A stretch of 43,964 bases of DNA. Source: a virus (Duplodnaviria > Heunggongvirae > Uroviricota > Caudoviricetes). The notes under the pieces were generated by a model. It was given only the letters and a program-made list of their open reading frames with translations. It did no database searches and was not told the DNA's origin. The position numbers and the translations under genes were made by a program. The DNA is taken from the IMG/VR virus record IMGVR_UViG_3300025861_000004; one strand, 5' to 3'. Position 1 is the stretch's first letter. The number at the start of each line of letters is the position of its first letter. This document shows positions 8,375 to 43,964 of this stretch, piece after piece.

Positions 8375-8404
8375 CGGACGTGCGGGTCCGGGTACATGGT
8401 GACT

Positions 8405-9439
8405 ATGCTCACACCCACCCGCAAGCTCGCCTCGATCCAGGTGATCGAGGGCTTCGACCCTATCCCGAACGCCGACGCCATCCTGCGCACCCGCGTGCTC
8501 GGCTGGACCCAGGTGGTTCGCCGTGACGAGGTCGAGGCGTTCCGCGCCTCCGACAACCTCTGCGTGTTCTTCGAGATCGACGCCCAGCTTCCAGACGGTC
8601 CCGCGTGGTCGGAGTTCATGCGCAAGCACGGCTTCGTGGTGCGTACCGTGCGGCTGCGCGGAGTGCTCGCCCAGGGGCTCGCGCTGCCCGTCTCGATCCT
8701 TGGGGAGGGCCCTGTGCCCGCCGTGGGTACCGACGTGTCGGAGCAGCTTGGGGTCACGCACTACGAGAAGGAGGTGCCGGACGACCCACGCATCTCGGGT
8801 CCCTTCCCGCCGCTCGTCCCCAAGACCGGGGAGCTGCGCCTCCAGTCGTACCCCGCGGTGCTCGACGACCTCCGGGGACACGCCTTCTACGTGACGACCA
8901 AGATCGACGGCGTGTCGGGGACCTTCTTCCAGCCGTTTGACGGGTCTCCACTCGTCGCGTGCCAGCGCAACTGGTCGGCCGCTCCTGGGGACCATCCCAT
9001 CTGGCGGGTCGTGGACCGCTACGACCTCCGCGTCATGATCCCGCCCGGCCTGGCCGTGCAGGGGGAGATCGCCGGCCCTGGCGTACCGGGCAAGAAGAAC
9101 CACCTTGGGCTCAAGGAGATGGAGTTCTTCGTCTTCCGCGTCTACGACGTGCGCAGGGACCGCTTCTTCAACTACTACGAGCTCGTCGCGTTCTGTCGCG
9201 ACCGGGGCCTCCGCATGGTGCCCGTCGAGCGCGTCGTGGAGGGACGGGAGGCCGTCGAGTATCTCCACACCTTGGAGGGGTGGCTCGCCGCGGCGCGGGG
9301 CTTCTACGAGGGTACGACGCACCGCAAGGAGGGGATCGTCGTCCAGACCATCGACGTCGTTCGGTCGGAGGCTCTCGGCGGCTCTCGCCTCTCGTTCAAG
9401 GTCATCAACAACGACTTCCTCCTCAAGGAGCAGGCATGA
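8405..9439 (+). CDS. ATP-dependent RNA ligase, DRB0094/Rnl2-like family
   Basis: RKLASI N-terminal OB domain, motif I KIDG, QGEI, FRVYD, EGIVV, FKVINNDFLLK. Confidence 0.9.
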   Translation: MLTPTRKLASIQVIEGFDPIPNADAILRTRVLGWTQVVRRDEVEAFRASDNLCVFFEIDAQLPDGPAWSEFMRKHGFVVRTVRLRGVLAQGLALPVSILGEGPVPAVGTDVSEQLGVTHYEKEVPDDPRISGPFPPLVPKTGELRLQSYPAVLDDLRGHAFYVTTKIDGVSGTFFQPFDGSPLVACQRNWSAAPGDHPIWRVVDRYDLRVMIPPGLAVQGEIAGPGVPGKKNHLGLKEMEFFVFRVYDVRRDRFFNYYELVAFCRDRGLRMVPVERVVEGREAVEYLHTLEGWLAAARGFYEGTTHRKEGIVVQTIDVVRSEALGGSRLSFKVINNDFLLKEQA

Positions 9440-30472: not shown

Positions 30473-30480
30473 GACCCTCT

Positions 30481-30589
30481 GCAATCTTTTTTCGGGTACG
30501 AGGTCCGACCTGCAATGTTTTTTCGGATTAGAGGCCATTCTCGTAATCTTTTTTCGGGTACGAGGTCCGACCTGCAATGTTTTTTCGGA
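30481..30589 (+). repeat. Four G(C/T)AAT(C/G)TTTTTTCGG boxes at a 31-bp period (45-bp perfect direct repeat, period 62)
   Basis: Boxes at 30481, 30512, 30543 and 30574; 30483-30527 is identical to 30545-30589. Confidence 0.92.
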
Positions 30590-30620
30590 GAAGGGCCCAG
30601 CCAGGCCCAGGAGGAACGTC

Positions 30621-31290
30621 ATGAACAGCATCCTGGTAGAAGTGAGGGCCGCCGAGGGCGGCGACGACGCGAAGAACCTCGTGCGCCAGCAGGTACGCAT
30701 CTATGTGCGACGCTGCGAGCGGAGGGGTCTTTAGCGCGGCTCTCGTTGAGGAGCGACCGGGGATCGCGATCCTTGAGGTGTCCGGCGCCGGCGCGGAGGC
30801 AGCCTTTGCGGACGAGCCCGGCGGGCACCGGTGGCAGCGGGTCCCCGAGACCGAGAAGCGGGGGCGCGTCCATACTTCTTCGCTGACGGTCGCCATCCTT
30901 CCTGTAGCGACAGACGCTGAGGTAGATGTACGAAGTTCCGACTTTGAATGGCAAGCCACCCGAGGCAGCGGAGCAGGAGGCCAGCATCGCAATAAAACGA
31001 GCTCAGCCGTCATCTTGCGTCATATACCGACGGGAATCGTGGTCCGCTGCGAATCGGAACGCAGCCAACACAGCAACCGACGCACCGCGATGTCCCTCCT
31101 CCTGTTCAAGCTGAGAACCCAGAGCCAAGAGGGTGCGCAAGCAGGCCGAGCCAAGCTGCGACGTGATCAAGTTGGAAGAGGGTGTCGCGGAGATAAGATC
31201 CGTACGGTCGCCGTTCAGCGCGACGAGGTTGTCGACCACCGACTGAACAAACGCTGGAGCTACCGCGAGTATGAGCGAGGAGGATGGTAG
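30621..31290 (+). CDS. Class-I peptide chain release factor homolog (RF1-type PET loop, GGQ, no domain 1), 222 aa via +1 frameshift
   Basis: GGAGGA SD; ILVEVRAAEGG; GHRWQRVPETEKRGRVHTSS; GAGGQHRNKTSSAV; ERSQHSNR. Confidence 0.88.
30721..30735 (+). promoter_or_regulatory. prfB-type +1 programmed frameshift cassette with UAG
   Basis: GGAGG-GGT-CTT-TAG-C: internal SD 3 nt before CUU-U, stop codon, then C. Confidence 0.82.
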
Positions 31291-31294
31291 GCCG

Positions 31295-31909
31295 CTAGGC
31301 GGCAGCATGCGGGCATACCCCTCCGTTGACCGCGCGTCCGCAGTTGCAGTTGAAACATAGCACTCGGTACCCGTCTGGATACTTCTGCCTCTTCAACCAC
31401 CTATATAGTTTCCCGTGGAGGTCGATACGATGCTTCTTGCCTCCACCCATCACGTGGTCGATGGTTAGGAACCCGATTCGGTCCTCTCTGCAACATTCGC
31501 AACGTCCCCCATAGGCCGTCAGTACCTCAACCTTCAGGGTCTGTTCGCGCTTCCGAAGTCGGAGCTTGCACCGATCACACCAACGAGGTCCCTCTCCCTC
31601 ACATTTTGGCGCCCCACATCGAGGGCATAAAGTAGGGTCGACTTGGTGGGCTTCGCGTCTCGTCTTTCCCTTCTCTTGGTACTTCTCCCGACATGCGGTG
31701 CAGAGCTTCCCCGGGGAGTCCAGCGGACCTCGACAATCCGCGCATCTTCCTGACGCGACTAGCGCGGCCTTCCTCCGCCGGTCATACTCAATAGCGCAAC
31801 CACATGTCTGTTTACCAAGACGCGGCGGGTTCGTCCCACACCTGACACAGAGTCCGGCCTCTTGGAGGGACTTACGCCTGGCGGTTTGCCAGGCTGTCTT
31901 CTTGTTCAT
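31295..31909 (-). CDS. Free-standing HNH endonuclease with Cys-rich N-terminal repeats
   Basis: FLTIDHVMGGG...YRVLCFNCNCG; several CxxC motifs; lower GC. Confidence 0.82.
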   Translation of the reverse strand: MNKKTAWQTARRKSLQEAGLCVRCGTNPPRLGKQTCGCAIEYDRRRKAALVASGRCADCRGPLDSPGKLCTACREKYQEKGKTRREAHQVDPTLCPRCGAPKCEGEGPRWCDRCKLRLRKREQTLKVEVLTAYGGRCECCREDRIGFLTIDHVMGGGKKHRIDLHGKLYRWLKRQKYPDGYRVLCFNCNCGRAVNGGVCPHAAA

Positions 31910-31950
31910 ACTTCTACGCTGGCCATAAACCCAGCACAAAAACATCCTGG

Positions 31951-38970: not shown

Positions 38971-39504
38971 GTGATGAAGGACATCAAGACGTGGGCACGG
39001 GACATCGTACGAGACGCGCGTCGGACTGGGTCGACCACCCAGATCGCACGGGCTGCCGTGCAGGGACGCACCGACGTGGCGGTCGTGCTGCCGAGCAGCA
39101 ACGCGGCCCTGGACTTCCGCACGCACTACCTGGTGCCCGCGGCCGTCCGGGCTAACCTCGCGGTCGAGCAGCTTCCCAAGAGCCCAGCCATCAGGATCTT
39201 TGGAGACGACGGCACGAACCACTATGTGTACGTGCTGGTGGCCGGACAGGACGTGCAGGGGTTGCCCGCGGTGCCTCTCCTGTTCGACCCGGCCGTCGTG
39301 TACCTGGTCTCGACGTTCGGGCAAGGGGCGTCCCCCGTGGCGTCCCTGCGCGAGATCATCCTGTACGGGACGACCGCGGGGACGGCGGGCCTGCTCGGCC
39401 TCCTGCTGCGCCCGCACCTGGGGCGCTGGGCGGTCGGGGCTGCCGTGGCGGTCGGGACGCTGGTTCCCGCGCTGCGCGCGCTACGCCGGCTGCGCCGCCG
39501 GTAG
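38971..39504 (+). CDS. Hypothetical protein with two C-terminal TM segments
   Basis: GAGGAGG SD; hydrophobic tail followed by basic residues. Confidence 0.7.
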   Translation: MMKDIKTWARDIVRDARRTGSTTQIARAAVQGRTDVAVVLPSSNAALDFRTHYLVPAAVRANLAVEQLPKSPAIRIFGDDGTNHYVYVLVAGQDVQGLPAVPLLFDPAVVYLVSTFGQGASPVASLREIILYGTTAGTAGLLGLLLRPHLGRWAVGAAVAVGTLVPALRALRRLRRR

Positions 39505-39933
39505 CGTGAGAGAGGGGCCTGACCGCGCACTCAGCACGAGCCCCGCGGGAAAGCTGCGCAGCCACTCGGAGTCGTGCCCCACGTAGAAGTGTGGGCACGA
39601 CTCCTTGCCACAGGAGTGCCCCGTCTCGATGACGAGCAGGTGCGGAGGGAGGTTCGACACGAACTCCACGTAGGTTGGGTTGAACGGGGAGCCGGCGACC
39701 TGCCGCACGGTGCTCGCGTCGACGACCTTGATCGTTCCCCCCTCGCACGACACGACGGTCATCTCAGTTCGAGACCCCTCGCTCCAGCACAGGCTGGTCT
39801 GGGGGATGCGATACTCGGCCTGCATCGACAGGAAGCCGTCACGTTTGCGGCACTTGATCCCCACGGTCTGGAGCAGGTCGCGGAGCACCTTGGTGAGGTG
39901 GAACTTCTCGCTGTGGTGGTTCGGGGTCGACAT
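39481..39933 (-). CDS. Hypothetical protein
   Basis: Start at motif +31. Confidence 0.7.
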   Translation of the reverse strand: MSTPNHHSEKFHLTKVLRDLLQTVGIKCRKRDGFLSMQAEYRIPQTSLCWSEGSRTEMTVVSCEGGTIKVVDASTVRQVAGSPFNPTYVEFVSNLPPHLLVIETGHSCGKESCPHFYVGHDSEWLRSFPAGLVLSARSGPSLTLPAAQPA

Positions 39934-39955
39934 GACCGTTAGTCGATGAGGTTAG

Positions 39956-40264
39956 CTACTTCGGAGCTGAGTCCCACAAGGCCGCGATCGCGTCCCGCCC
40001 TACCTGGGCCGCCAGGGCGCGCAGCTTGCGGACCTTGTTGGCGTCCTTGCGACGCACCCGCGAGATCCAGCGCTCGAAGTCGCCCCCGTGCTGGCGGGCG
40101 AGGCCGGCGGCCCCGTCCACGATCTCACCGAGCTCGGTGACTCCGAGAAGCAGGGTGTAGCGTCCCTGCCACTCGTAGACCGAGAAGGGCGCGCGCTCCC
40201 AGACGAGGAGGCCCCGCGGGGGTCCCGGTTCGCACCTGCGGTTCGAGGCCGTGTAGTAGCTCAC
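39956..40264 (-). CDS. Hypothetical protein
   Basis: GTGA coupling. Confidence 0.65.
   Translation of the reverse strand: MSYYTASNRRCEPGPPRGLLVWERAPFSVYEWQGRYTLLLGVTELGEIVDGAAGLARQHGGDFERWISRVRRKDANKVRKLRALAAQVGRDAIAALWDSAPK
39964..39970 (-). promoter_or_regulatory. TCAGCTC promoter-like motif
   Basis: ATG 39933 at +31; -10 slot TCGAC. Confidence 0.75.
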
Positions 40265-40518
40265 CGGCGAGCCCTGGGGGCCGATCCCCGGACGAAGCTG
40301 AAGTGGACGACGCGGAGCTCGCGCTCTCCCTCCACCAGCACGGCGACGTGCTGCCCCCCGACGAGATGGTGGTGGGAGTCCTCGCGGAGGAAGCCCTGAA
40401 ACGTGGCTGTCTGCTCGATGCGGCGTGGGGGTGACAGGTCCTTCTGGTAGACCTCGACGAGGACCCGCGACCCCACCTGGCGTCGCTTGAGGTTAGCCCG
40501 CAGGCGCGTGAAGTCCAT
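40261..40518 (-). CDS. Small hypothetical protein
   Basis: TGATG coupling with the upstream gene. Confidence 0.6.
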   Translation of the reverse strand: MDFTRLRANLKRRQVGSRVLVEVYQKDLSPPRRIEQTATFQGFLREDSHHHLVGGQHVAVLVEGERELRVVHFSFVRGSAPRARR

Positions 40519-41108
40519 CAGTCCTCCACGTGCCGAAGGCCGAAGGACGTCGCGGCGCTGACGAGCGCGCGGAACGCGTGGTTCTCGGTGGGTCCCGCGT
40601 CGTGGATGCCTCGGCGGTGGCGAAGGCGTGCGCGCCAGCAGCCCGACCGGCCCGAGTGGAACCCGCTGGGGTCGAAGTACACCTCGACGTCGGCCGTCGT
40701 GTAGCTGTCCTCGTGGAGCGTGTGGGGAGACGCGTCGGGCGGCAGGGGCTCGAACGCCGACTCCAGCGGGTCGCAGAGACACGAGTGCAGCCTCTCGCTG
40801 CACGTCGCGCAGCGGTCGCCTCCGTCCGTGACCAGGCACAGGTAGCTTGAGGGCTGGACCTTTCGGCGCATGAGGGGCAGCGACGCGCGGCAGAACGGGC
40901 AGGCCACCAGGCCCGCCACCTCCCCCATGCACCAGGAGCCCGTCCATAGGTGGGAGGCCAGCATCCCTCCGTTGTGGACGCGGAACCGAATGTGCGACTC
41001 GGCGCGTCCGCAGCAGGTGGGTCGGGGACGCAGCGCCTCGATCTCCTGCCGCCGTCGGTCGAGTAGGTTGCCGCGGAACTCTCGGATCTGCCTGGGAACG
41101 TCGCTCAT
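40518..41108 (-). CDS. Cys-rich hypothetical protein
   Basis: TCCG, CPFC, CATC, CLC motifs. Confidence 0.7.
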   Translation of the reverse strand: MSDVPRQIREFRGNLLDRRRQEIEALRPRPTCCGRAESHIRFRVHNGGMLASHLWTGSWCMGEVAGLVACPFCRASLPLMRRKVQPSSYLCLVTDGGDRCATCSERLHSCLCDPLESAFEPLPPDASPHTLHEDSYTTADVEVYFDPSGFHSGRSGCWRARLRHRRGIHDAGPTENHAFRALVSAATSFGLRHVED

Positions 41109-41139
41109 CCCTGATGGGTAGAGCGATGCCGACCGACCG

Positions 41140-41190
41140 GAGCTGAAGGAGTTTCGTCAACCCACCCGCTGGGCTACGAGACGTCAGCTC
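41140..41190. promoter_or_regulatory. Divergent pair of TCAGCTC motifs (41140-41146 minus, 41184-41190 plus)
   Basis: Starts at 41108 (+32, TCTAC) and 41221 (+31, CCGAC). Confidence 0.75.
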
Positions 41191-41220
41191 CATCCCGCCG
41201 GAAGGTTCCGACCCTTGGTC

Positions 41221-41565
41221 ATGCAGACCTTCATCCTGCGGGAGGAGCACGTGAAGCTGCTCCGCGCCGCCTCCGTCGACACGAACCTGGCCGAGTGGGG
41301 AGCCCCCACGATCGACCCGAAGCGCCCCTTCGGGAACGGCGACATCACCGGGGACATGGCCCGCATCCTCGGGATGGGGGACCCGTCGGAGCTCGGGAAG
41401 ACCGACCGGGAGCGGTTCGAGCGTCTGATGCTGAAGCTCTTCCGGGAACTCGGCGACGCCCTCCAGGTGGTGCTGGCGGCCGGGTCGTTCGCGCCGGGGA
41501 CCTACGTGCAGGGGCTGGTGGACGGGCGCCACTCGTGGCGGCGCGTCGATCGGCTTACCGACTGA
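41221..41565 (+). CDS. Hypothetical protein
   Basis: WGAPTIDPKRPFGNGDI; high GC3. Confidence 0.75.
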   Translation: MQTFILREEHVKLLRAASVDTNLAEWGAPTIDPKRPFGNGDITGDMARILGMGDPSELGKTDRERFERLMLKLFRELGDALQVVLAAGSFAPGTYVQGLVDGRHSWRRVDRLTD

Positions 41566-41593
41566 TAGCCTATATGGCTATCAAGCCATCTAG

Positions 41594-42595
41594 CTAGCTC
41601 TTTAATTCAGAATAGAACACGCCGTAGCTATATTCGCTTAAATCGACCCATTTGTCCTCGTGAACTTTAACTGAGGTATGTGGTGCCACACACCATAAGT
41701 AACCAGGCCACGGTTGGAGAGCTGCAATGATTAGTTGCGTTTTATTCACAGTAACGTGAAGCGGAACAGTTTGATTGATTATGTCAACCCACCCTGTGTA
41801 GGGTGCGTTATTGATGTATGTTATTATAGGTAGGGGCAAGGATTCTAACCCCAGGCTCTCCAAATTCATGTGCTTAAAGCGAGCTGCTGATAGTTCTTTA
41901 GCCGTTTTTCGTGGGTCTTCATTGCTCCAATTCTTGGGATAGTCGACCTCAAAAATGGGTACGAGACTATCGACGACGCTCCACATAATTAAGATTCTTT
42001 GCTTCTTGGTAGTCACTTCTTTCCATGACCTATTGTTTATAGATATACGATTGTCAATCGCGGACAACGCGATTCTATGTATTATAGACCTCAAACAATC
42101 AAACAAGTGTGACTTACACACCTTACCTTCCCAGTCCCTGCACTTTACACTGTAAGTGGTGGATGCGTGACATGCCCCGTTGTGTTTATCAAGAGAAGTG
42201 TTCCTGACACTTACGTAGTCGCATGTAATAGCACGGAACAGCACATACTCGTCCAACAGACTGTTACCATCTCTCTGTATCACAGAATATTTTGATCCCG
42301 CGGGGGCTTCTGCCAGTACGACTCTTATGTCAGGAGGTACTGATCGAGCCAGTTCAATAGGTTTTTGAATTGACTCGTCTAATATCCCCTTAACCTCTAC
42401 AAAAACGCGGGCACCAGGTAGCCAGAAGTCGGGCAGGTACCACGTCCCGCTCGGTAGCTGGTAGCCCTCCTGCTCGTAGGTCCACTCGATCCCCTTGGAG
42501 TCGAACCACTCGGCCCAGGCGGCTTCCAGCTTGGAGCGGAACTTGACGCCCTTGTAGGTGGTGGGGATGGCGGCGATGCGAGGTGGGGTGCTCAT
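41594..42595 (-). CDS. PD-(D/E)XK nuclease-domain protein with an AT-rich C-terminal region
   Basis: FRSKLEAAWA...YLPDFWLP...FVEVKG; abrupt GC drop after about codon 55. Confidence 0.75.
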   Translation of the reverse strand: MSTPPRIAAIPTTYKGVKFRSKLEAAWAEWFDSKGIEWTYEQEGYQLPSGTWYLPDFWLPGARVFVEVKGILDESIQKPIELARSVPPDIRVVLAEAPAGSKYSVIQRDGNSLLDEYVLFRAITCDYVSVRNTSLDKHNGACHASTTYSVKCRDWEGKVCKSHLFDCLRSIIHRIALSAIDNRISINNRSWKEVTTKKQRILIMWSVVDSLVPIFEVDYPKNWSNEDPRKTAKELSAARFKHMNLESLGLESLPLPIITYINNAPYTGWVDIINQTVPLHVTVNKTQLIIAALQPWPGYLWCVAPHTSVKVHEDKWVDLSEYSYGVFYSELKS

Positions 42596-43584
42596 GGGGT
42601 GCGTCCTGCCTGGGGTTCGAGGTGTTCGACTGCGGGGTACCAGGTGCGGCATACCCTCAGAGCTGACGTCTTGAGCCGGTCGAGCACCCCGAGCAGGTGA
42701 GAGGCGGCCTCGCCCGACCGGATCTCCGTCTCCGAGTACCGGAGCGCCGAGTAGCCGAGGGCGTAGAACGCCTGGGCGGTCTCGGTGTCGTAGTCGATGC
42801 ACGCCGACGGATCGCGGAAGCGGCAGCTGGGGCCATGGAAGGCTTCACCGTCGCAGAAGATGAGGATCGTCCGTCCATCCTCCAGGCGCACCTCGATGTC
42901 GGCCTCTCGGCAGGTCGTCTCCCCTCGGACTTGGATCGTGCGCCAGCGATTGCGAGCGTGGATGACGATGCCTTCCGCCTCCATCTGGCTCACTAGCTCG
43001 TCTTCCAGGCCGCTGTGGAGCGTAAGGAGGGTCAGAGTCTGATGGATGGTTCGGACCTTCCGCGTGTGCATCATGCGGTCGAGGATCTCCTTCCCGAACG
43101 CATGCTCACCGATGGCCCGCAGCACCGGGTAGGTGACCCCCGCTTGCTGTCGGATGTCGTTGATGCGGTCGCCGGCCTGGATGGCGTGAACGACCCTCTG
43201 ATAGGTGGGGTCCCCTGGCTCCCAGCGAAGCGTCCTCGCAGTCAGCCCGTCTCGCCGCACCATGGGCACCTTGCCCTTTGGGCTGAGGTGATCAGTCGGC
43301 TTGGTGTCGAAGGTCAGGGCCTCGTACTGGCGCTTCCCGAGCTTCCTCCGCAGGTCGTCGCAGGTGGGGCAGCGCTTACGCCCCTTGAGCGCCTTGTCGC
43401 GCACCTCAAAGAGGCTCCCGCACTTCCTGCACCTCGTCGTGAGCCGGTACTCTGCGCGCCAGGCTAGCCACTCGTGTAGGAGCTTCCGGTGATCGTCGTC
43501 GAGGCGCTTGCGGAGGTGCTGTGTGAGGGCGCGGTAGGTGGGCATGGGCTGCCCGCAGACCCGGCAGTCGCCTAAATAGTTCAT
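42592..43584 (-). CDS. Zn-finger plus DUF559/Vsr-like endonuclease
   Basis: CRVC, CRKC, CPTC; EADI...IFCDGEAFH...LGYSALRYSETEI. Confidence 0.72.
   Translation of the reverse strand: MNYLGDCRVCGQPMPTYRALTQHLRKRLDDDHRKLLHEWLAWRAEYRLTTRCRKCGSLFEVRDKALKGRKRCPTCDDLRRKLGKRQYEALTFDTKPTDHLSPKGKVPMVRRDGLTARTLRWEPGDPTYQRVVHAIQAGDRINDIRQQAGVTYPVLRAIGEHAFGKEILDRMMHTRKVRTIHQTLTLLTLHSGLEDELVSQMEAEGIVIHARNRWRTIQVRGETTCREADIEVRLEDGRTILIFCDGEAFHGPSCRFRDPSACIDYDTETAQAFYALGYSALRYSETEIRSGEAASHLLGVLDRLKTSALRVCRTWYPAVEHLEPQAGRTP
42660..42666 (-). promoter_or_regulatory. TCAGCTC motif inside the end of a CDS
   Basis: 65 nt before ATG 42595; extended CGTCAGCTCTGA match. Confidence 0.45.
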
Positions 43585-43601
43585 TCTGCCAGGGTAGCAT
43601 A

Positions 43602-43964
43602 CTACCGCATTATATTGTTCCAAGGTCTAGATCGGCCGCGGAACTGCTCGCCCTCGGGCTTGGCGGGGTCGTCGGTCACCATGGGGACGAAGTGTCGAGG
43701 CCCCACGGGGAAGGGGGGACCGGCCCAGCCCTCCTCCTCGTCGTAGGAGATCTCTCCCGTGACGGGCAGGCGCGGCTCGACGATGTCGACGTCCCTGGTC
43801 TCGGGGTTGGGGAGCAGGACCCCGTAGGTGGGGACGCGGTACCGCACGTCCCCCTCGTCGATGAAGCTGAGCGTGGTGTGCTGCTGGAGCAGCGCCCCGC
43901 GGTTGGTGGGCCGGTGGGTCGGGCCGACGAGGTAGCGCTCCCCCGACTGCTTGACGACGAGGTC
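43602..43964 (-). CDS. 5'-truncated hypothetical (possibly structural) protein
   Basis: High-GC3 frame open to the window edge. Confidence 0.6.
   Translation of the reverse strand, partial: DLVVKQSGERYLVGPTHRPTNRGALLQQHTTLSFIDEGDVRYRVPTYGVLLPNPETRDVDIVEPRLPVTGEISYDEEEGWAGPPFPVGPRHFVPMVTDDPAKPEGEQFRGRSRPWNNIMR

Follow-up and report, generated by a model that had tools for sequence, protein, structure and literature searches.

The stretch of DNA analysed here, hereafter the window, is 43,964 nucleotides long (IMG/VR record IMGVR_UViG_3300025861_000004) and contains a release factor (RF) gene split between two reading frames. As read from the sequence, this gene starts at the ATG at position 30621, 5 nt downstream of a ribosome-binding site, GGAGGA (30610-30615, + strand). 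The first part (ORF1, frame 0, 30621-30731, + strand) is 37 codons long, from this Met to a Leu codon CTT, and its last four codons are CGG AGG GGT CTT. This part contributes to RF domain 2 its first strand and helix, together with the GG-D-D loop. The rest of the gene (ORF2, 30733-31290, + strand) lies in the +1 frame; it encodes residues 38-222, i.e. the remainder of domain 2/4 and the GGQ-bearing domain 3, and is closed by a stop codon at 31288-31290. At the junction stands a predicted shift site, CTT TAG C (30729-30735, + strand), made of CTT (30729-30731), TAG (30732-30734) and C (30735). An internal Shine-Dalgarno (SD)-like GGAGG (30721-30725, + strand) ends 3 nt before the slip codon CTT.

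Reading CTT-T as one step joins the two parts into a 222-aa protein. The Pfam PCRF profile is itself divided between the frames, its positions 100-134 being matched in frame 0 and positions 153-194 in the +1 frame, where the RF-1 domain follows (2.9e-29). In the gene-caller annotation, only a downstream ORF of 195 aa (P0004) is present. A second frame-0 stop, TGA (30747-30749), is found 4 codons past the TAG, so that plain readthrough of the UAG would be useless, gaining four residues. Readthrough or suppression of the UAG was rejected on this ground, and also because the five tRNAs of the window do not include a suppressor tRNA. Searches around the RF gene for known RNA families, sigma-70 promoters and intrinsic terminators found none.

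We then looked at the frame break in related strains. Two assemblies from independent studies, X4 (wastewater, 2021) and X5 (2021), contain strains roughly 95% identical to the window. Both cover positions 30729-30735, without indel or any other change. Upstream of the site, the strain differences (30671, 30680, 30695, 30704 and 30710) fall at third positions of frame-0 codons in 5 cases out of 5; downstream, 19 of the 24 differences listed fall at third positions of the +1 frame. The codon phase of substitutions thus switches from frame 0 to +1 at the site, which means that both segments are translated, each in its own frame. This shows that selection acts on the ORF1 frame as well as on the ORF2 frame. 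A look for RNA runs or proteome data covering the locus turned up none. A sequencing error was rejected, given the conservation of the site in independent assemblies and the switch in substitution phase.

The joined 222-aa protein is collinear, across the junction, with solved RF1 structures (E ~1e-44, 36-40% identity), and its matches to structure chains outside RF1 are weaker (RF2 ~1e-28, PrfH 9e-16). Scores against the NCBIfam models rank in the same way: 205 bits for RF1 (TIGR00019 / NF001859, cut-off 400), 142 for RF2 (TIGR00020, cut-off 370), 94 for PrfH (TIGR03072, cut-off 166.65) and 41.8 for ArfB (cut-off 100). All of them are under the respective cut-off, so that no model claims the protein. 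The match to the RF1 profile is confined to positions 105-318 out of 347, and domain 1 and the last C-terminal helix are therefore missing. In an AF2 model of the joined protein (mean pLDDT 89.6), the strand (3-12) and the helix (15-34) built by residues 1-37 have pLDDT 90-97 and pack into the codon-recognition domain, and the junction falls within the turn that precedes strand 38-45. Foldseek comparison of this model gave TM scores of 0.90-0.93 with ribosome-bound RF1 (about 2 Å rmsd), 0.83-0.88 with RF2 and 0.67 with PrfH (9mor_A).

The protein has the PCRF and RF-1 domains, the PxT-type loop and the GGQ of RF1, and lacks its domain 1 and the score of an RF1 equivalog. It is not an RF2, having PET instead of SPF, 142 bits against the 370 of TIGR00020, and a frameshift site located in domain 2; neither is it an ArfB, whose match is limited to the GGQ region whereas domain 2/4 is present here. 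The PET tripeptide (30844-30852, + strand) occupies the RF1 PxT, or "anticodon", position inside QRVPETEKRGRVHTS, which aligns with QRVPATEAQGRIHTS of the host RF1, and the peptidyl-tRNA hydrolysis motif GGQ is encoded at 30976-30984 (+ strand). The decoding residues of the window protein are RF1-like throughout (Q, PET and V-H-T-S). The original prediction of an RF1-like product with PET and GGQ, without domain 1 and distinct from PrfH, thus agrees with profile scores, structure comparison and alignment alike.

Within the family described below, the residues implicated in decoding are conserved to different extents, taking the host RF1 as reference. The GG of the helix tip and the GGQ are found in 100% of members, the decoding Q in 99% and the P of PxT in 94%. 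Two changes are characteristic of the family: the E next to the helix-tip GG is D in 96%, and the V before the decoding Q is W in 93%. The T of PxT is kept in 67% and is N in 24%, and the H decoding position is H in 64% and Q in 36%. These last two replacements affect residues that are invariant in canonical RFs, so that not every member can be assumed to read stop codons.

The window as a whole is phage-like, with PHROG matches to an exonuclease, an AAA ATPase, an RNA ligase and an HNH endonuclease, and a Pfam match to an ATP-dependent DNA ligase. The RNA ligase, of T4 type (phrog_968, 6.6e-48, 8396-9436), is on the same element as the RF gene and a cluster of five tRNAs at 17.2-18.9 kb. Judged by gene content, the combination of RNA ligase, tRNAs and RF suggests a gene set for translation maintenance or RNA repair. 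Convergent on the RF gene, and separated from it by a 4-nt gap, is a Cys-rich HNH homing-type endonuclease gene (phrog_2255, 31295-31945, - strand). Despite this convergent gene, the RF ORF reaches the C-terminus normal for the family (Y-x-R-G-x-W), and its 3' half looks neither replaced nor truncated. Positions 1-39432 of the window correspond to contig C103 (21237-60668) of a metagenome-assembled genome (MAG), G000; the last 4.5 kb (39433-43964) are reported to lie off C103, and a 60-mer taken from them was found on no G000 contig.

Directly upstream of the ribosome-binding site of the RF gene, four TGCAAT(C/G)TTTTTTCGG boxes (30480-30588) are spaced 31 bp apart; they are unique in the window (4 matches, 0.13 expected). 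In the source-sample assembly X1, the contig breaks over these same positions, 30480-30588, into short contigs of higher depth. Strain X5 carries 298 other bases in place of 30474-30620, and the boxes are also absent from the closest relative of the gene, so that they are not integral to the frameshift device. All-against-all clustering of the 7,486 ORFs flanking 145 family loci revealed no conserved partner gene. Homing endonucleases, of the HNH (16 loci) and GIY-YIG types, are the most frequent neighbours, and tRNAs occur within 6 kb at 53 of the 145 loci. RtcB is absent from the contig of the RF gene, with matches on other contigs only. The proposal that the repeat array and the tRNAs form part of one system with the RF gene was therefore not supported. 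In five complete phages of 390-456 kb, the family RF is the sole full release-factor gene.

How widespread is this arrangement? A protein search returned relatives in two length classes, one of ~222 aa and uninterrupted, the other of ~190 aa and starting with GG-V/L/A-F-D/S, which is precisely the +1 reading of GGAGG-nnn-CTT-T-stop. Viral contigs from IMG/VR and genomes from GTDB gave 160 loci, to which 15 more were added, and the two halves of each gene were placed by tblastn and pairwise alignment. Many of the viral contigs are 100-460 kb long, and the genomes are mostly from Myxococcota (Kofleriaceae, Sandaracinaceae, Nannocystis, Archangium, Minicystis). In 129 of 145 non-redundant loci, the two halves can be joined only by a +1 shift at CTT-T-stop, always at the same codon. 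In all 129, the codon directly 5' of the stop is CTT; the stop is TGA in 91, TAG in 34 and TAA in 4, and the base 3' of it is C in 104 and G in 23. The SD element has the consensus CGGAGG at -12 to -7, present in full in 64 loci, and GG is present at -11/-10 in more than 110. The recurrence of the same cassette at the same codon is, on these sequence counts, far beyond what chance would be expected to give.

Codon choice at the cassette points the same way. AGG serves as the second Arg codon in 71 of 77 cases, and CTT is the invariable Leu codon, in genomes that are mostly GC-rich. Such use of the rare codons AGG and CTT shows nucleotide-level selection. In uninterrupted relatives, RRG is found in only 6 of 48, and the Leu position is variable. 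The uninterrupted state concerns 6 of the 145 loci of the survey, and many more relatives from the protein search. The cassette originally read at this locus (CTT at codon 37, followed by TAG-C, with GGAGG 3 nt upstream) is thus a genuine prfB architecture, and a conserved one (129/145 loci). Of the expected conservation of SD-CTT-TAG in homologs, the CTT (129/129) and, in most loci, the GGAGG 3 nt upstream were found, and the TAG was not, being the stop in only 34/129.

Among cultured and deposited phages, a nucleotide search gave no match. A protein search of the same phages yielded a single frameshifted relative, in an unannotated 485-kb uncultured phage, the rest being ordinary RF1 or RF2. 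In one relative, P0006, RR-VFS is continuous in one frame, as though the G-run had lost a G and the two frames had merged ahead of the slip site. P0010, to which it is closely related, is frameshifted, and P0006, which is on a 991-nt contig, is either a natural reversion or an assembly error.

A second cassette position was found in a subfamily of four loci (L164, L171, L173 and L174), with GAG CGG GGG CAC CTT TGA C located ~10 codons further 3', after EERGHL. Two of them are from isolate genomes of culturable bacteria, Thiobacillus denitrificans DSM 12475 (L171) and Novimethylophilus kurashikiensis La2-4 (L174). This position is not homologous to the main one, which implies an independent origin or a relocation of the cassette. 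At nine loci, an in-frame stop takes the place of the frameshift, mostly at one of the two cassette positions: exactly at the main slip site for L020 (TAG), L021 and L023 (both TGA), at the subfamily site for L069, L142 and L160 (all TGA), and elsewhere nearby for L098, L099 and L146. The sequence TGA-CTG recurs among these members.

The in-frame-stop members could be cases of programmed readthrough; some, L099 for instance, could instead have an alternative genetic code. Two of the records contain long stop-free helicase ORFs, apparently in the standard code, although this is a weak test. L099, with two in-frame TGAs at 30% GC, may use code 4. On a FastTree phylogeny of the C-terminal parts, the state of the gene (frameshifted, open or with an in-frame stop) changed at least 12 times. 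Early stops have thus appeared repeatedly and at two positions, which suggests recurrent selection for an early stop.

Taken together, we hold it to be quite probable that the locus encodes a stand-alone, phage-borne class-I RF derived from RF1 and consisting of domains 2-4, which is made via a programmed +1 frameshift of the prfB type. By analogy with prfB, the most likely role of the shift would be to gate the phage RF by termination efficiency. Ribosomes would start at the ATG at 30621, translate 37 codons, and then pause, with the P-site CUU paired to tRNA-Leu and the UAG-C, a weak termination context, standing in the A site. The GGAGG 3 nt upstream would pair with the anti-SD of the 16S rRNA, tRNA-Leu would re-pair from CUU to UUU, and translation in the +1 frame would then yield the 222-aa factor. 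Slippage of this kind, SD:anti-SD pairing at a 3-nt spacing, and competition with RFs are documented for prfB (PMC12421855; PMC5009743). At the window locus, termination at the UAG, by host RF1 and possibly by the phage factor, would compete with the slip, so that slow UAG termination should raise the output and efficient termination lower it. We infer from the parallel with prfB both that the shift occurs and that its efficiency depends on release factors. The prfB of the host MAG (L002, contig C168 of G000, - strand) contains GGAGG TTT CTT TGA C, so that the translation system of the host already uses the device. As to why supply should be gated at all, an RF without domain 1 is not recyclable by RF3 (PMC1586002). 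Speculatively, a factor lacking this domain may be harmful in excess, which would favour a self-limiting or demand-gated supply.

A stricter version of this scheme is autoregulation in which the phage factor itself recognises UAG and so ends translation of its own ORF1, the match between stop and specificity being a design principle, as the original prediction had it. We regard it as possible, with the odds clearly against it. Taken at face value, the match exists at the window locus, where the sensor is UAG and the factor has the RF1-like Q, PET and VHTS. The element is moreover rich in TAG stops: contig C103 has 38 TAG (59%), 20 TGA and 6 TAA, compared with 61% TGA, 29% TAG and 10% TAA in the rest of the MAG, at a GC content of 0.66 in both. 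This makes a demand for an RF1-type factor plausible here. Across loci, the share of TAG among nearby stops was slightly higher where the sensor is TAG (0.31 versus 0.22, p=0.025, uncorrected for phylogeny), which hints weakly at a sensor stop that follows local stop usage.

As a family rule, the match does not hold, TGA being the sensor in 91/129 loci. UGA should not be readable to an RF1-type factor. Since this stop is the sensor in most members, autoregulation alone does not account for the regulatory logic. PET is also present in the closest relative, which is 76% identical and lies on a 393-kb contig, yet its cassette is CGG AGG GGT CTT TGA C. The identity of the sensor stop switched at least 29 times on the tree, compared with 34-38 times in five of 200 label shuffles. 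Over the family, no association was found between the sensor stop and the residue at the PxT position, loci with PPT having TGA in 50 cases, TAG in 15 and TAA in 2. Nor was TGA associated with N at the T position, Q at the H position or S at the T199 position (Fisher p 0.38, 0.43 and 1.0, respectively). The overall ratio of TGA, TAG and TAA sensors, 70:26:3, resembles ordinary stop usage in GC-rich genomes. These distributions indicate that the feature under selection is an early stop to be bypassed, whatever its identity, rather than a stop matched to the specificity of the factor. A product that reads its own sensor cannot be the general logic, unless its stop recognition is wider than that of RF1. 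For the window member taken individually, UAG self-feedback is possible, on the residues and the stop listed above.

Less probable again is a constitutive attenuator, in which the frameshift would keep the yield low and constant for a factor that may be toxic and is not recycled by RF3, without meaningful sensing of RFs. The free interchange of TGA, TAG and TAA fits such an any-stop device, and the uninterrupted members show that gating is dispensable in some lineages. A weak ribosome-binding site would suffice for simple attenuation, however, and the early stops arose repeatedly and independently, which argues that the stop itself is selected. Moreover, the configuration found here, namely CUU, a stop with a weak 3' C and an SD at 3 nt, is the one that in prfB is set by RF competition (PMC12421855).

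A further reading, which we place slightly lower still, is that the phage factor has relaxed or omnipotent stop recognition, every sensor variant then being part of a true self-feedback loop, as in the eRF1 of Mimivirus. That UGA, UAG and UAA interchange freely as sensors could point that way. Hints come from the replacements that the family shows around its decoding pocket, namely D for the E at the helix tip, W for the V that adjoins the decoding Q, N for T in 24% of members and Q for H in 36%. If it were true, the family would provide a bacterial-type class-I factor for all three stops, working without RF3, and a self-limiting back-up terminator for conditions where host RF1 or RF2 is limiting or attacked.

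The remaining two readings are far less probable than these. The locus might encode two products: a leader peptide of 37 aa, and a truncated factor whose translation starts at the +1-frame ATG at 30703. This ATG does exist, but it is formed by a conserved Tyr codon TAT plus the next G and has no SD ahead of it. ORF1, which is under purifying selection, supplies a strand and a helix, both conserved, to the same folded domain and includes the GG-D loop, which in RF1 contacts the stop codon; the geometry of CTT, SD and stop would also be left unexplained. We thus see hardly any likelihood in two separate products. Least probable of all is a broken gene or an assembly error, through an indel that turned it into a pseudogene or a wrongly called T of the T-run: it would account for the callers annotating just the 195-aa downstream ORF, and is already contradicted by CTTTAGC without indel in the assemblies of other studies, by the frame-specific third-position patterns and by the conservation of the cassette in 129 loci.

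The preferred reading, a phage RF gated by termination efficiency, bears on a textbook case, since the prfB frameshift is the classical example of autoregulatory recoding in bacteria. The same device would have evolved independently, at two positions, in a gene derived from RF1, with sister genes using an in-frame stop instead, and its carriers are mainly huge phages and Myxococcota. The family thus offers a natural experiment on what the sensor measures (RF1, RF2 or the product), on how stop identity drifts, and on why large phages bring along a minimal, RF3-independent terminator. There is also a consequence for annotation: as callers give just the 3' ORF, genes of this kind will probably be labelled truncated or pseudogenic.

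Among known systems, the closest in design is prfB itself, with which the phage gene shares GGAGG, the 3-nt spacer, CUU, a stop with a 3' C, and the location of this element early in a class-I RF gene whose remainder is in the +1 frame. The E. coli prfB site is at codon ~26. It lies in domain 1, whereas the site of the phage gene is at codon 37 and in domain 2, which implies an origin independent of the prfB site. The phage gene also differs in being derived from RF1 (PET, not SPF), in having no domain 1, and in its stop, which is UAG in the window and any of the three stops in the family. Most family sensors, being UGA, are even a stop that the product is not expected to read. With RF1 (prfA), the factor shares the PCRF and RF-1 domains, a PxT-type loop, the Q and H-T-S residues and GGQ; it differs by the missing domain 1 and last C-terminal helix and by the family-specific E to D and V to W changes. 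Genes for prfA are not known as frameshifted (PMC5009743). PrfH, or RFH, is likewise a short class-I RF paralog without domain 1, but it lacks the RF1 stop-codon recognition residues that the window factor keeps. Unlike this RtcB-coupled rescue factor, the phage factor has neither RtcB on its contig nor any conserved neighbour. Frameshifting has not been reported for PrfH genes (PMC1586002).

In line with the original statement that no RF1-type version of the shift was characterised, none was found in the literature, and a 2016 review of recoding describes the RF1/UAG counterpart, as well as RF genes with an early in-frame stop, as unknown in bacteria (PMC5009743). A full-text literature search found no description of this phage RF family, which is not mentioned in a 2025 prfB survey, the GeneTack study, a survey of RF evolution, a jumbo-phage survey or the recoded-phage paper. 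Recoded phages of the Lak, Agate and Jade groups encode a full-length RF1 or RF2 tied to a code change, together with suppressor tRNAs (bioRxiv 10.1101/2021.08.26.457843). No frameshift is reported in those RF genes, in contrast to the window factor, which is truncated and frameshift-gated, on an element without sign of recoding. The nearest viral parallel is found in Mimivirus R726 and Megavirus mg280, eRF1-type genes with +1 sites reading CUU UAG C or CUU UAA C and a readthrough stop (PMC3521657). These factors belong to the unrelated eukaryotic/archaeal eRF1 fold and to viruses of eukaryotes, and, eRF1 being omnipotent, any stop provides them with self-feedback; they nevertheless parallel the phage RF family in both of its devices, the frameshift and the in-frame stop.
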